Below, piece by piece: positions 2,425 through 36,593 of a stretch of DNA of 64,000 bases; position 1 is the stretch's first letter; the number at the start of each line of letters is the position of its first letter. Source of the DNA: Candidatus Micrarchaeota archaeon (GTDB lineage Archaea; Iainarchaeota; Iainarchaeia; JAADDC01); contig JALTXX010000016.1 in NCBI GenBank assembly GCA_027046625.1, positions 1-64,000 of the forward strand. Direction: 5' to 3'. A program made the translations under genes and the position numbers. A model generated the notes under the pieces. That model saw only the letters and a list, made by a program, of their open reading frames with translations. It was not told where the DNA came from and did not search any database.

Positions 2425-3311
2425 GGGTGGAAGCAATGGAGGGAGTGGAAAAAATACTAATGGTCAGAGCCTACCAGCCGCAGGCGTCTTATAGAAACCC
2501 GTATACATTCTTCTTTGCTCAGAGCTATCCACTCCCTCCACCATCCACTATAAGAGGTATGCTAGGCAGAGCCACAGGGAGATATTATTATCCGTTTAAA
2601 GAGGTAAAGATAGGAGTAATGGGTAAATACGGTGGTAAGGGTTGGGAGTACACTCAGATGATAAAACTGCTAAGATCCTATCCCGTTCCAGGAGATATAC
2701 TGGTAGATGTGGATATAGGAGGAGGTAATAAGGACATAGGGTTTTTGTTTAACAAGGAGAAGAGGGTACGGCGGCAGCCAGTATACCGAGAGGTTCTCTA
2801 TGATGTAGAGCTGTTACTAGTTATTGGAGGACCCTCTAATATAGTAGAGGAGATAGGCAAAGCTCTCAGAAGGCCAAGACACTCTTTATATCTGGGAAGA
2901 TCGGACGACATACTGATAATTGAGGATGTAAATGTTTTCAAGGTGAAGATGGAAAGAAGATCCCCTGACGTGTATAAGATCTTACCGTATGCTAGGCAGT
3001 ATCTTGGTGACGATTGGGGTATGTACATTAAAAGAAGGGAGGGGGTAGCTAAACCAAACAGCATACAGTATTATCTACCCGTGAGAATAATCTTTATGAA
3101 CGAAAAGAGTGACAAGGAAATGGTAATAGACAGAAGAGGTATGATAATGGCATTGAGGGATAAACTAGGCCAGAAAATAGAAGCAGTGGAGGCCGAATAT
3201 TTAACATCAGGTATTGTGATAAAAGAGAAAAAAGATCCGTTTACAGAGGATGATGTTGGGTTTGTGTTGGAGGGAGAAGAGTGGGAAGTTCCGGAGAGAA
3301 TGCTGATGTGA
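2421..3311 (+). CDS. cas5: Cas5 (Cas5t)
   Basis: ASYRNP...SYPLPPPSTIRGMLG and LYLGRSDD motifs. Confidence 0.9.
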   Translation: MRVEAMEGVEKILMVRAYQPQASYRNPYTFFFAQSYPLPPPSTIRGMLGRATGRYYYPFKEVKIGVMGKYGGKGWEYTQMIKLLRSYPVPGDILVDVDIGGGNKDIGFLFNKEKRVRRQPVYREVLYDVELLLVIGGPSNIVEEIGKALRRPRHSLYLGRSDDILIIEDVNVFKVKMERRSPDVYKILPYARQYLGDDWGMYIKRREGVAKPNSIQYYLPVRIIFMNEKSDKEMVIDRRGMIMALRDKLGQKIEAVEAEYLTSGIVIKEKKDPFTEDDVGFVLEGEEWEVPERMLM

Positions 3312-8624: not shown

Positions 8625-8655
8625 AGTACTTTTGATGTTTTAAAGGATAAAAACA

Positions 8656-8728
8656 TGCGCCGGCCGGGATTCGAACCCGGGTCGTCGGCGTGGAAGGCCG
8701 ACGTCCTACCAGGCTAGACTACCGGCGC
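8656..8728 (-). tRNA. tRNA-Gly(TCC)
   Basis: GCGCCGG acceptor, anticodon loop CT-TCC-AC, GGTTCGAATCC. Confidence 0.95.
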
Positions 8729-8729
8729 A

Positions 8730-8785
8730 TGTGGCCCCGGCCAGAGACACCGGTTCATGGGTCTCCGGGCGTCGCAACCGGGGCC
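8730..8785 (-). ncRNA. Box H/ACA guide RNA with apical K-loop
   Basis: GGCCCCGGU/GCCGGGGCC stem followed directly by ACA; internal pocket; CCGG-AGA-CCCA-UGAA-CCGG K-loop. Confidence 0.85.
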
Positions 8786-8790
8786 TCCCA

Positions 8791-8865
8791 CGGCCCCGAG
8801 GGGATTTGAACCCCTGACCTTCGGCTCCGCAAGCCGACGCCCTATCCAGGCTGGGCCACGGGGCC
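8791..8865 (-). tRNA. tRNA-Arg(GCG)
   Basis: Cloverleaf, anticodon loop TT-GCG-GA. Confidence 0.95.
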
Positions 8866-8868
8866 CTA

Positions 8869-8942
8869 AGCCCCGGGCGGGATTCGAACCCGCGACCTCC
8901 CGCTTACAAGGCGGGCGCTCCGCCGGGCTGAGCTACCGGGGC
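8869..8942 (-). tRNA. tRNA-Thr(TGT)
   Basis: Cloverleaf, CT-TGT-AA, U73. Confidence 0.95.
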
Positions 8943-8951
8943 ATGTTAGGA

Positions 8952-9026
8952 TGCTCCGGCCGGGATTTGAACCCGGGTCACGGGCTCGAAAGGCCCGCAT
9001 GCTTGACCGGACTACACCACCGGAGC
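8952..9026 (-). tRNA. tRNA-Glu(TTC)
   Basis: Cloverleaf, CT-TTC-GA. Confidence 0.95.
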
Positions 9027-9046: not shown

Positions 9047-9059
9047 TTAACTTTTATAG
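9047..9059. promoter_or_regulatory. TATA element between the tRNA operon and proS
   Basis: TTAACTTTTATAG ~25-30 nt from both the tRNA-Glu 5' end and the proS ATG. Confidence 0.5.
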
Positions 9060-18780: not shown

Positions 18781-19779
18781 TTATGAGGTTTGCTCCCCCC
18801 GACGCTTCCACATGGGAGGATACACACCTTTCTCCATGATTACTCTAAATGTATCGGCGATTACCCCTCTGTCCATTTCTAGCATTTCCTCTGTAGAGTA
18901 AAGGGAGTGTGCAAGCGCCACAAGTTCCCCCTTCTTTGTCATGAGAGCGATAAGAGCGTTAGGCTCTATACCTTCTTCTACTGATACAACTCCTTTTATG
19001 GTAAGATTAGCCCCATTTACGATAGATCCCACAGCGGAATCCCTGATTACAATCTTTGGAAGATGTTTGACGGCAACTTCCACGGGAAGAAGATATCTTC
19101 TTAGGAGCGAATCATCCCCATCCTCTTTCCAAAAGTGATAGGCATCTGTTAGATCTTGTAGTGTAACAGCACCCCACTCATCCAACCCTCCTACCCTTGT
19201 TCTTCTTAGCTCTACCATGTGAGCTCCGGTTCCCAATACAAGGCCCATGTCATGGCAGAGTTTCCTTATGTATGTACCCGCCTCTACTCCACTTCTAAAA
19301 AGGACATAGGTATCCATCTTTTCAAGGATGTTCAACCAGTATATTTCTCTTATTCTTAACCTTCTTTTGACGGAGGATTTCACGGGCGGGCGCTGGTATA
19401 TCTTGCCCTTAAAAAGGGAAGCTACCCGCTTTACCTCCTCAAGGGAGGCATCTCTATGAAGCTTCATCACCCCGACGTACTCTTTCCCTGCATTTAAGAG
19501 TGCATATAATACTTTAGTACCCCTGTTGATGCCTACTGGTAGAACACCCGTAACCCCTGGATCCAGCGTTCCGCTGTGGCCAGTTTTCTTAACGTTCAGG
19601 ATCTTTTTTACCCAGCTTGACACCTCATGAGAGGTGGGGCCTGGTGGTTTGTCCACATTTACAATAGAAGCTTGTAGAAGCTCTTCTACACTTCTCTCCT
19701 CAGGTGGTTTCCCCCAAGGACCCTCTGGCTCCTCAGATAATATATATACCTTTCTTTCCCGCTCCCAGGGAAATTTCAT
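18781..19779 (-). CDS. cbf5: H/ACA pseudouridine synthase Cbf5
   Basis: DKPPGPTSH, GHSGTLDP, GTYIRKLC, C-terminal PUA domain. Confidence 0.97.
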   Translation of the reverse strand: MKFPWERERKVYILSEEPEGPWGKPPEERSVEELLQASIVNVDKPPGPTSHEVSSWVKKILNVKKTGHSGTLDPGVTGVLPVGINRGTKVLYALLNAGKEYVGVMKLHRDASLEEVKRVASLFKGKIYQRPPVKSSVKRRLRIREIYWLNILEKMDTYVLFRSGVEAGTYIRKLCHDMGLVLGTGAHMVELRRTRVGGLDEWGAVTLQDLTDAYHFWKEDGDDSLLRRYLLPVEVAVKHLPKIVIRDSAVGSIVNGANLTIKGVVSVEEGIEPNALIALMTKKGELVALAHSLYSTEEMLEMDRGVIADTFRVIMEKGVYPPMWKRRGEQTS

Positions 19780-35708: not shown

Positions 35709-36593
35709 TTATAACTCTACGGTCATAAGATCTTCCGCCACCTCTACATAAGGGAAAACTTCTTTCGCCTCCTCTAGGAGAGGAGTGGGATCTCTGTAAC
35801 GAGGAGAGATATGATAAAGGAATAGTTTCTTTGCACCTATCTTTTTTGCCACCTCGGCAGCCTGTCTTGCGGTGGAATGTTTTACCTCCTCTGCTTTTTC
35901 CCTTTCTCCTTCCCCAAAGGCACTATCATGGATGAGATAGTCTACAGGAGGTATATAGGTGGGTGCGGTATCCACGAAATAGCCTATAGATCTACCCTTT
36001 ACAAGGGTAGTATACTCCTCGGGAGAGAGCTCTATACCATTCCAGGTGACTGTCTCTCCAGCCTTTAACCTTCTGTATATTCTCCAATCATTTACACCTA
36101 CCTTTTCTAGCTTATCTTTTAGCAGCTTCCTCCTGTCTTTCTCCCTGAATATATATCCAAAGGTCTCTGTTGTATGGTCAAGCCTCACGGCTTCTATGTG
36201 GAACTCCCTCCCCTCAAATATGGTGCCTTCCCTTACAGGGATCCACGCAATGGGGAAAAGGGGAAAGAGGGGGATTGCATGTACTAACCATCTCACCCTT
36301 CTAAGGGCTGTTGGGGGGAGAAAAATGTAGAGAGGTTTCCTTCGGTTGTTTAACAACATGGTGTTTATAATGCCAGGCAGCCCAAATACATGATCTCCAT
36401 GGAGATGGGTAATGAATATGGCGTCTATGGAGGTGGGAGATATGCCTGCAAGTGTTAGCTGCCTCTGTGTGCCCTCTCCACAATCAAACAAAATACTATA
36501 CCCGTTGTAGGATATGTGGACGGCTGGGAGACCCCTTTCCTTGGTAGGTACAGATGCAGATGTCCCAAGGAAGGTTAGCCTTATGGGCTGCAT
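35709..36593 (-). CDS. rnz: Ribonuclease Z
   Basis: LGTSASVP, DCGEGTQ, THLHGDH, HST, HISPRY. Confidence 0.96.
   Translation of the reverse strand: MQPIRLTFLGTSASVPTKERGLPAVHISYNGYSILFDCGEGTQRQLTLAGISPTSIDAIFITHLHGDHVFGLPGIINTMLLNNRRKPLYIFLPPTALRRVRWLVHAIPLFPLFPIAWIPVREGTIFEGREFHIEAVRLDHTTETFGYIFREKDRRKLLKDKLEKVGVNDWRIYRRLKAGETVTWNGIELSPEEYTTLVKGRSIGYFVDTAPTYIPPVDYLIHDSAFGEGEREKAEEVKHSTARQAAEVAKKIGAKKLFLYHISPRYRDPTPLLEEAKEVFPYVEVAEDLMTVEL

Follow-up and report, generated by a model that had tools for sequence, protein, structure and literature searches.

A very likely H/ACA guide RNA for the U2457 position of 23S rRNA, encoded between tRNA genes in a 652-kb archaeal genome

What is encoded by the 56 bases that separate two tRNA genes in the genome of this Candidatus Micrarchaeota archaeon? 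In the window, by which we mean the whole 64,000-nt stretch of DNA that was analysed, the minus strand carries a tRNA cluster in the order Glu-Thr-Arg-[hairpin]-Gly (ARAGORN, Rfam), in which tRNA-Arg(GCG), at 8791-8865, and tRNA-Gly(UCC) flank a 56-base hairpin at 8785-8730. Rfam at gathering thresholds detects seven tRNAs only in the window and leaves the hairpin spacer unannotated. This had been anticipated in an earlier note, made from the sequence alone, which took the hairpin to be a box H/ACA guide RNA lying between two tRNAs, now identified as those for Arg and Gly. Our results suggest that it is very likely that 8730-8785 (minus strand) is a single-hairpin archaeal box H/ACA guide for LSU U3241, made from a tRNA unit. 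The hairpin is very probably an RNA of an ordinary kind in an unusual gene arrangement.

The minus-strand sequence from 8785 to 8730 was read back identical to that in the earlier note, and the parts named there (a 9-bp lower stem, a pocket, an upper stem with a GA/UGA K-loop and an ACA box) are all present. It reads GGCCCCGGU-U-GCGAC-GCCCGG-A-GA-CCCA-UGA-A-CCGGUGU-CUCUG-GCCGGGGCC-ACA and can be divided as follows.

8777..8785, minus strand: lower stem, 5' strand GGCCCCGGU (from the sequence and from pairing across orthologues)
8771..8775, minus strand: 5' guide strand GCGAC, pairing with 23S GUCGC 3' of the target U-G
8765..8770, minus strand: upper stem (H2), 5' strand GCCCGG, paired across orthologues
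8754..8764, minus strand: K-loop A-GA-CCCA-UGA-A, with the tandem sheared G.A signature
8747..8753, minus strand: upper stem, 3' strand CCGGUGU, with one bulged U (structural parse of orthologues)
8742..8746, minus strand: 3' guide strand CUCUG, pairing with 23S CAGAG 5' of the target U
8733..8741, minus strand: lower stem, 3' strand GCCGGGGCC (structural parse of orthologues)
8730..8732, minus strand: ACA box, 14 nt 3' of the pocket-closing pair

The lower stem (GGCCCCGGU/GCCGGGGCC) has 9 bp with the ACA immediately 3', in keeping with the 7-9 bp closed 3' by an ACA (ANA) box that is the rule for H/ACA RNAs (PMC4652768). The ACA box is expected 14-16 nt from the pocket-closing pair, and at 14-15 nt in P. 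abyssi (PMC2377435, PMC4652768); here the 5-nt 3' guide and the 9-nt lower-stem strand add up to 14 nt, the distance that had been claimed from the sequence, and this spacing recurs in 10/10 orthologues. For the upper part, the corresponding rules call for 5-6 bp in H2, no more than one bulge and a GA stem of 8-11 (PMC2377435, PMC4652768), and the window copy has 6 bp in H2, a single bulged U and a GA stem of 9. The apical GA...UGA of a K-loop is present at the sequence level, and 8754..8764 is a predicted binding site for L7Ae.

The H/ACA architecture by itself is within chance expectation. A strict descriptor of this architecture has the 8730-8785 hairpin as its sole match in the real genome, and it returned 0, 0, 1, 0, 1, 0, 0, 1, 0 and 1 matches in 10 block-shuffled genomes; a single match in 4 of 10 shuffled genomes means that the one real match is not significant. 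The 63-nt stretch folds with -33.2 kcal/mol (z = -2.65), and 1 of 200 shuffles was as stable. The minimum-energy fold of the free RNA partly closes the pocket in 10/10 orthologues, the closed-pocket fold being favoured over the open-pocket fold by 1.7 to 13.1 kcal/mol; hence, invariance of the pocket strands could partly reflect intramolecular pairing. The strict descriptor also missed a second real H/ACA hairpin (guide 2, C7:24269-24324). A relaxed descriptor gave 7 matches in the genome versus 1, 3 and 4 in shuffled genomes, and those other than C7:24269-24324 look like noise.

The pocket strands point to a specific target. At LSU position 3241 (contig C11:21580), the organism's own 23S rRNA holds CAGAG-U-G-GUCGC. 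Alignment of the guides to this rRNA, which the earlier note had proposed as a check, gives perfect pairing with CUCUG and GCGAC, that is, 5+5 Watson-Crick pairs around an unpaired U-G; U8776 and U8777 can contribute two G.U pairs, extending the duplex to 5+7. The earlier note had given the site as CAGAG-U-C-GUCGC. Both paired arms and the unpaired U were as given there, but the neighbour of the target U is a G and not a C, in this organism and in the five relatives in which the site was located. Since this neighbour is unpaired, the difference leaves the target prediction standing. Alignment to E. coli K-12 rrlB places LSU U3241 at E. coli U2457, the equivalence that had been put forward. The target could be located in 6 of 14 family genomes, all of which share the same 19-nt sequence.

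The expectation for 5+5 Watson-Crick pairing around an unpaired U-N is 1.2e-3 in the 5214 nt of the organism's own rRNAs, and the 23S site is the only all-Watson-Crick match on both strands of the 652-kb genome. Seven other genomic 5+5 matches need 1-5 G.U pairs, the best of them (C18:21985) needing one. Among the 16S, the 23S and 44 tRNAs, the 23S site is the only match with contiguous pairing and at most two G.U pairs, and a fixed 5+5 scan of these RNAs found no second site even with one mismatch. When the 3' guide was cut to 4 bp, two weak 23S sites appeared, each with a mismatch and a G.U pair.

Of 13 relatives within the family, 9 carry an orthologue of the hairpin, spread over two genera; the relatives' records go under Candidatus Iainarchaeum or Candidatus Micrarchaeota. 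There are 11 orthologous copies in total, and the conservation counts are based on the 10 full-length copies. CUCUG, GCGAC, GA, UGA and ACA are unchanged in 10/10 of these copies, so that the ACA box and the GA/UGA of the K-loop, the conservation of which had been proposed as a further check, are kept throughout; the interior of the K-loop is different in all 10. In an explicit parse anchored on the ACA and the invariant strands, with the alignment fitted to the structure, pairing holds in 87 of 90 cells of the lower stem, where three pair positions have both-sided changes, and in 59 of 60 cells of the upper stem, where the relatives G005 and G001 have C-G turned into G-C at two positions. Both-sided changes are thus present at five pair positions in total and, as the sequences come from two genera only, these amount to few independent compensatory events, about four. 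A tool-made alignment (A3) has 82% of cells paired and one both-sided pair change, with a covariation score reached by 13 of 500 shuffles. However, both a MAFFT alignment (A1) and the model-fitted A3 shift the lower stem of the second genus by one base and misplace the upper-stem bulge, which makes the A3 covariation count weak. Counting a terminal G.U pair, H2 in G005 and G001 has 7 bp, slightly outside the Pyrococcus rule; an H2 of 7 bp was non-functional in Pyrococcus tests (PMC2377435).

How such an RNA might be produced is suggested by its surroundings, which comprise the following elements.

9051..9058, minus strand: TATA-box-like element TATAAAAG, ~25-32 nt upstream of tRNA-Glu
8952..9026, minus strand: tRNA-Glu(UUC), the first gene (ARAGORN; Rfam tRNA, 64.1 bits)
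8869..8942, minus strand: tRNA-Thr(UGU) (ARAGORN, Rfam)
8791..8865, minus strand: tRNA-Arg(GCG) (ARAGORN, Rfam)
8786..8790, minus strand: 5-nt spacer UGGGA between tRNA-Arg and the hairpin (sequence)
about 8655..8729, minus strand: tRNA-Gly(UCC) (ARAGORN, Rfam; 8656-8728 in Rfam)
8649..8653, minus strand: T5 run directly after tRNA-Gly (sequence)

The spacers of the unit are 9, 3, 5 and 1 nt, the hairpin beginning 5 nt after tRNA-Arg and its ACA ending 1 nt before tRNA-Gly. On the minus strand between 9070 and 8640, AT-rich 8-mers are found only at 9060-9030 and 8656-8646, and the T5 at 8649..8653 is the only run of four or more T. Inside the unit, from 9030 to 8656, a search for promoter or terminator signals found no AT-rich 8-mer or T-run. 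The element at 9051..9058 is a putative promoter of the whole tRNA/guide unit and the T5 run its putative archaeal terminator. The genes for tRNA-Glu, -Thr, -Arg and -Gly are each the sole gene for their anticodon in the assembly; as all four are single-copy, the unit must be expressed and read-through of the hairpin is unavoidable. Without a promoter of its own and with spacers of 5 nt and 1 nt, the hairpin is probably released by tRNA-processing enzymes.

We propose that tRNA-Glu, tRNA-Thr, tRNA-Arg, the guide and tRNA-Gly would be made as one transcript in which the guide has no promoter of its own. RNase Z, cutting at the 3' end of tRNA-Arg, would create the 5' end of the guide, while RNase P, cutting at the 5' end of tRNA-Gly, would create its 3' end (ACA plus U8729), and both cuts would release an RNA of ~62 nt (8790-8729). 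Cbf5 (via its PUA domain) and Nop10 would grip the lower stem and the ACA, L7Ae would sit on the K-loop and Gar1 would complete the particle. In this particle the pocket strands would base-pair with the 23S rRNA on both flanks of the unpaired U-G and so bring LSU U3241, which as the equivalent of E. coli U2457 adjoins the peptidyl-transferase centre, into the active site of Cbf5, where it would be converted to pseudouridine. Cbf5 (with PUA), Nop10, Gar1 and L7Ae are all encoded in the genome, all above Pfam cut-offs, and an RNase P RNA scores 128.9 bits, over gathering. Two of the genes concerned lie in the window, including the cbf5 that had been noted there.

18781..19779, minus strand: cbf5, H/ACA pseudouridine synthase, 332 aa, with DKCLD, TruB_N, TruB_C_2 and PUA domains
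35715..36578, minus strand (profile-match coordinates): RNase Z gene (TIGR02651, 298.1 bits; curated cut-off 292.95)

Expression of the guide, its processing sites, assembly of the RNP and modification of the U are predictions from the DNA. A search for sequencing runs listed six RNA runs, each with at most 0.04 of the sampled words; reads from three RNA runs and one DNA run gave contigs over tRNA pieces only, mostly those of other organisms, with a depth of 0 over 8736-8786.

The setting of the guide differs among relatives. In G005 the guide lies between tRNAs for Gln and Pro, and in G001 between those for Gln and Arg-CCG, while 7 of the 11 orthologous copies have no tRNA in their ~1.5-kb flanks; in copies lacking a tRNA neighbour, an A/T-rich element lies ~25-30 nt upstream. 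Within one genus, therefore, the guide is found between Arg/Gly, Gln/Pro and Gln/Arg tRNAs, and in the sister genus it lies 3' of a protein gene. These differing tRNA hosts and the protein-gene host suggest that the guide moves between transcription units while its pocket stays fixed. We lean towards a promoterless H/ACA guide within a tRNA operon, with its ends cut by RNase Z and RNase P and a capacity for host-switching, in a genome that may rely on very few single-hairpin guides (two found) for pseudouridylating its rRNA. Covariance model R1 detected no paralogue in the organism's own genome; BLAST searches of that genome with seven paralogous hairpins of relatives recovered guide 2 on C7 alone, and the relatives' two other H/ACA families were not found in it (94% complete). 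A target search with guide 2 gave no clean target, the best, imperfect candidate being 16S U516. Elsewhere in the genome, a 66-nt spacer between tRNA-Ser and tRNA-Ala on C9 is AT-rich and lies between convergent genes; on inspection it held no guide-like element.

A real H/ACA guide for the U2457 site could also be made from a start of its own, in or after tRNA-Arg, or by other nucleases, with no role for its position among tRNAs. The seven copies without flanking tRNAs, together with A/T-rich elements upstream, indicate that the guide can be expressed alone, and the single H/ACA sRNA of N. equitans is a stand-alone gene with its own promoter and terminator (PMC3491384). In the window, however, the 5-nt and 1-nt spacers and the stretch free of AT-rich 8-mers and T-runs from 9030 to 8656 argue against such a start, as do unavoidable read-through from single-copy flanking tRNAs and the equally tight embedding seen in G005 and G001, next to different tRNAs. 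We consider an independent origin of the transcript, or release by other nucleases, unlikely.

The hairpin might instead be a structural spacer of the tRNA operon, either a processing or stability element or a regulatory K-loop bound by L7Ae, with the match to rRNA being coincidental. The preference of the free RNA for a closed pocket would fit such a role, as would an architecture that on its own is not significant against shuffled genomes. Nevertheless, the hairpin is conserved in seven copies outside any tRNA context, and its pocket strands and ACA are invariant while its stems co-vary and its loop drifts; moreover, its genome-unique match falls on a site that is H/ACA-guided in two archaeal lineages (PMC2377435, PMC11077068), and the 652-kb genome retains the full set of H/ACA proteins. 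A mere spacer is thus highly unlikely. Finally, the RNA may be an H/ACA guide with its main or an additional substrate elsewhere, in an mRNA, a tRNA or another rRNA site. Known archaeal guides can act on as many as four sites or more (PMC2377435, PMC11077068), and the seven more genomic 5+5 sites with 1-5 G.U pairs, the best at C18:21985, would be candidates; but there was no second site in 16S, 23S and 44 tRNAs under contiguous pairing with at most two G.U pairs, and the relaxed 4-bp 3' guide gave just the two weak 23S sites with a mismatch and a G.U pair each. We regard a substrate of this sort as most unlikely, and a single-hairpin guide for LSU U3241 is the reading that we prefer.

The hairpin alone was also searched against Rfam. 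The two best families are Pyrococcus H/ACA sRNAs, each aligning with the hairpin over its whole length: hairpin 1 of snoR9 (RF00065; model positions 1-59) at 33.1 bits (E 7e-7; gathering 90) and the whole model of Pab160 (RF02796) at 19.6 bits (E 0.16; gathering 47.4). Homology to HgcF (RF00058)/Pab35 was considered and rejected, as the alignment, across the tRNA-hairpin region, scored 13.1 bits of 70 (E 1.1) and was not significant. As the snoR9, Pab160 and HgcF scores are all below gathering, the hairpin falls into the H/ACA class but into no curated H/ACA family. snoR9 and Pab160 resemble it in the lower stem, the GA...UGA K-loop and the ACA, which are in register with the hairpin; their guide strands are different, however, and hence their targets differ. 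snoR9 also has a second half (model length 128) which is absent in the hairpin.

If this assignment is correct, a DPANN lineage gains an H/ACA guide validated by comparison, together with covariance model R1. In such DPANN genomes nothing is picked up by curated Rfam families, and consequently their annotation has H/ACA proteins but no guides. It would also mean that a 652-kb genome retains RNA-guided modification at the U2457 position by the peptidyl-transferase centre. As E. coli modifies this site with a protein enzyme whereas Pyrococcus, Sulfolobus and yeast use H/ACA guides, such retention would point to the site's functional importance. The tRNA/guide/tRNA layout would, in addition, be a simple case in which both ends of a guide stem from cuts by RNase Z and RNase P. 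In the literature searched, prokaryotic tRNA-linked guides are of the box C/D type only (PMC3491384), a 2021 review (PMC7991803) has no occurrence of 'tRNA gene' or 'co-transcribed', and a full-text search for work on H/ACA pseudouridines in DPANN archaea gave a single, unrelated preprint.

The ribosomal position is shared with E. coli RluE, which makes psi2457 in 23S rRNA but is a protein-only synthase. In yeast, psi2826 is guided by snR34. In S. islandicus, sR435 guides 23S-U2597, a position whose annotated counterparts are psi2826 of yeast and psi2457 of E. coli (PMC11077068). sR435 is a 'classic' Cbf5-associated H/ACA RNA that shares its ribosomal site with the hairpin RNA described here, and it differs in having at least eight substrates listed, among 16S, 23S, a tRNA and crRNAs (PMC11077068). 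In P. abyssi, Pab35 makes pseudouridines at the positions for which E. coli uses RluE, RluB and RluC, and its motif 2 guides 23S psi2549 (PMC2377435); this would correspond to 2457 + 92, an offset that also maps 2672 and 2697 to 2580 and 2605. Pab35 (Pf6; HgcF, RF00058) is likewise an archaeal box H/ACA RNA with a K-turn/K-loop and an ACA, but it has several hairpins and several sites, whereas the window RNA has a single hairpin and one predicted site; the available part of PMC2377435 gives no description of Pab35 as embedded between tRNAs. The U2457 site is, therefore, already H/ACA-guided in Pyrococcus (Pab35) and Sulfolobus (sR435), and the gene layout is the less ordinary part. For this layout the likenesses are plant tRNA-Gly-snoR43 and N. 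equitans tRNA-Val-sRNA8, in which a promoterless guide lies directly 3' of a tRNA and the RNase Z cut at the tRNA 3' end makes the 5' end of the guide (PMC3491384). Both snoR43 and sRNA8 are box C/D RNAs, whereas the window guide is of the H/ACA type and has a tRNA on both sides, so that RNase P would define its 3' end too.

The hairpin between two tRNA genes is very probably a genuine, canonical box H/ACA guide RNA, and its sequence predicts a function at the U2457-equivalent of 23S rRNA. The source organism is a DPANN-type archaeon with a small genome (G000; 652 kb, 18 contigs, 94% complete), and the window lies on contig C16. Minus strand 8785-8730 reads GGCCCCGGU U GCGAC GCCCGG A GA CCCA UGA A CCGGUGU CUCUG GCCGGGGCC ACA, exactly as the earlier note had it. 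The hairpin fills the 61-nt gap from tRNA-Arg(GCG) to tRNA-Gly(UCC) in a tight minus-strand cluster (tRNA-Glu, tRNA-Thr, tRNA-Arg, hairpin, tRNA-Gly; spacers of 9, 3, 5 and 1 nt). The features concerned are as follows.

9058-9051, minus: TATA-like box TATAAAAG, about 25-32 nt upstream of tRNA-Glu
8791-8865, minus: tRNA-Arg(GCG)
8785-8730, minus: predicted H/ACA hairpin
8655-8729 (ARAGORN) or 8656-8728 (Rfam), minus: tRNA-Gly(UCC)
8653-8649, minus: T5 run after tRNA-Gly
18781-19779, minus: Cbf5 (DKCLD, TruB_N, TruB_C_2 and PUA domains)
35715-36578, minus: RNase Z gene, which shares the window with cbf5 and the tRNA/guide unit

Architecture by itself is insufficient evidence. A strict descriptor (lower stem of 7 bp or more; K-loop N-GA-N3-10-UGA-N flanked by 4 bp or more; ACA, 13-17 nt from the pocket) had the hairpin as its only match in the real genome, and one match in 4 of 10 block-shuffled genomes; the weight falls on the target match, conservation and the pattern of variation. 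Among the archaeal rules, the available part of one source (PMC4652768) gives a lower stem of 7-9 bp, 14-16 nt from pocket-closing pair to ACA and a "GA stem" of 8-11, while excerpts of another (PMC2377435) give an ACA-to-target distance of 14-15 nt, an H2 that is 5-6 bp long and has no more than one bulge, and the duplex with the 3' guide as most important. The hairpin has a 9-bp lower stem, within the published range, and its ACA lies 14 nt from the pocket-closing pair, in line with both distance rules. The "GA stem" is 9 here and 10 in the relatives G005 and G001, all within range; H2 is 6 bp with one bulged U, as the rule allows, and 7 bp in G005 and G001 counting a terminal G.U, one pair over. 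The 3' guide duplex has five Watson-Crick pairs, three of them G-C. Searched alone against Rfam, the hairpin matched two Pyrococcus H/ACA families end to end, best snoR9 hairpin 1 (33.1 bits, E 7e-7) and then Pab160 (19.6 bits, E 0.16); both scores are far below gathering, so it belongs to no curated Rfam family, and the guide is not annotated by current libraries.

The target match is specific. The organism's own 23S gene (C11:18340-22052) holds CAGAG-U-G-GUCGC, its target U being LSU 3241, and this is the only pocket match in 16S plus 23S even with one mismatch allowed (expectation 1.2e-3). On both strands of the whole genome it is the only all-Watson-Crick match, seven others requiring one to five G.U pairs, and no competing target was found among the 44 tRNA genes. 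The guide-23S duplex extends to 5+7 bp with flanking G.U pairs. When the region is aligned to rrlB of E. coli K-12 (2904 nt), the unpaired U falls on U2457, within GGC-U-GAU, as the earlier note had proposed. That note had the target U right but gave its neighbor as C where the gene has G; the prediction is intact because that base stays unpaired. The 19-nt target GTAACAGAGTGGTCGCGGG was found in 6 of 14 family genomes, with no difference among them; the remaining eight, in which the 23S is probably unassembled, gave no match. The 23S gene is itself 3,713 nt long, due to a low-GC (43-49%) insertion on C11 (3600-4150 of the extracted 23S region L001; LSU about 2100-2650). A 178-aa ORF within it contains a LAGLIDADG_1 domain (E 5e-17), and because of that ORF we read the insertion as a probable rRNA intron that encodes a homing endonuclease.

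A BLAST search with the 71-nt region detected orthologues in nine of the 13 relatives within the family (G001, G002, G004, G005, G006, G007, G008, G011 with two copies, and G013) and none in 27 genomes from 15 other families. A covariance model (R1) gave strong matches (75-80 bits) in eight of these nine, missing the G004 copy, which is cut by a contig end, and matched nothing in 137 genomes drawn from 28 families elsewhere in the class. Across 185,579 species genomes, a pattern scan returned nine stretches, all within this group. The records of relatives with the element are named Candidatus Iainarchaeum or Candidatus Micrarchaeota, except for one case of Methanobacteriota MAGs. Conservation of the ACA and K-loop had been set as a check: GA, UGA and ACA, with both guides (5' GCGAC, 3' CUCUG), are identical in all ten full-length copies, and the K-loop interior differs in all ten (4 to 8 nt). 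On an alignment fitted to the structure, 87 of 90 lower-stem and 59 of 60 upper-stem cells are paired. Both sides change at five pair positions: lower-stem pairs 1 (G-C to U-A), 7 (C-G/G-C) and 8 (G-C to A-U, in G013) and upper-stem pairs 4 and 5 (C-G to G-C, in G005 and G001). A machine alignment, which has the sister genus one base out of register, gave weaker covariation (82% paired, one double-change pair; 13 of 500 shuffles reached the score), and independent events are few because only two genera were sampled.

The hairpin region folds at -33.2 kcal/mol (z = -2.65; equalled by 1 of 200 shuffles). The minimum-energy fold of the free RNA partly closes the pocket in 10 of 10 orthologues, by 1.7-13.1 kcal/mol. 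Such partial closure is common among guide RNAs, and the closing pairs are also drawn in Rfam's snoR9 consensus; pocket invariance could partly reflect intramolecular pairing. Of the two copies in G011 (loci L006 and L015), the second differs in its flanks, and its upper stem contains a C/C mismatch; the pair could stem from mixed strains in the bin (3% contamination) or from decay of a duplicate.

The stretch from the TATA-like box to the T5 run is free of further T-runs and AT-rich 8-mers. Among the 44 tRNA genes, none of the four in the unit shares its anticodon with another, so the unit must be transcribed, and the hairpin with it. Cut after the tRNA-Arg discriminator and again at tRNA-Gly +1, the transcript would yield UGGGA-hairpin-ACA-U, 62 nt; RNase Z and the RNA of RNase P are both encoded. 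The RNase P RNA (C3:22945-23176, minus) matches the full archaeal model (1-288) in 232 nt and may be a shortened form. Cbf5 is present as first reported, and Nop10 (C3), Gar1 (C8) and L7Ae (C2) are encoded, all over cut-offs. The guide lies between tRNA-Gln and tRNA-Pro in G005, while in G001 its neighbors are tRNA-Gln and tRNA-Arg(CCG); the spacers in these arrangements are 1-2 nt and 7 nt. For G002 and all seven sister-genus copies, the flanks of about 1.5 kb are free of tRNAs, and an A/T-rich element lies about 25-30 nt upstream instead. In four sister-genus genomes (L005, L007, L008, L011) the hairpin follows a conserved ORF (C-terminus about ...KIEEIFEPED), beginning 1-2 nt past its stop codon, and there the guide may be a 3'-UTR-derived or ORF-internal-promoter sRNA.

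Other H/ACA-type hairpins were also observed. One, outside the window (C7:24269-24324, plus), is a GC-rich single hairpin with a 10-bp lower stem, a K-loop and ACA 14 nt from the pocket; its orthologue in G003 (C77) has the same pocket strands. No clean rRNA or tRNA target was found for it in G000, the best candidate, 16S U480 (E. coli U516 by alignment), being one where the duplex with the 3' guide contains an A.C mismatch. Relatives in the family hold at least two more guide families (loci L043 in G006:C26, L045, L046 and L047; L041, L044, L048 and L049), one a paralogous double-hairpin RNA, directly after tRNA-His in G006, the other with lower stem GGCCCGGG; model and BLAST searches of G000 recovered neither.

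A full-text literature search on DPANN H/ACA pseudouridine guides returned one unrelated preprint, and no H/ACA guide seems to have been described earlier in this lineage. H/ACA guidance of the U2457-equivalent is itself already known. Excerpts of PMC2377435 have P. abyssi Pab35 making the positions modified in E. coli by RluE, RluB and RluC, its motif 2 guiding psi2549, and the available part of PMC11077068 has S. islandicus sR435 guiding 23S-U2597 (psi2457 in E. coli, psi2826 in yeast). Compared by description, the hairpin may be homologous to these and to the N. equitans H/ACA RNA, or convergent on the site. The noteworthy feature of the guide is its arrangement within a tRNA operon. "tRNA gene" and "co-transcribed" are absent from the text of a 2021 H/ACA review (PMC7991803), and the prokaryotic precedent found for tRNA-linked guides, in the available part of PMC3491384, is for box C/D RNAs only. 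There, N. equitans tRNA-Val-sRNA8 is a substrate of RNase Z, and that organism's sole H/ACA sRNA is a stand-alone gene, whereas the guide in G000 lies inside a tRNA operon.
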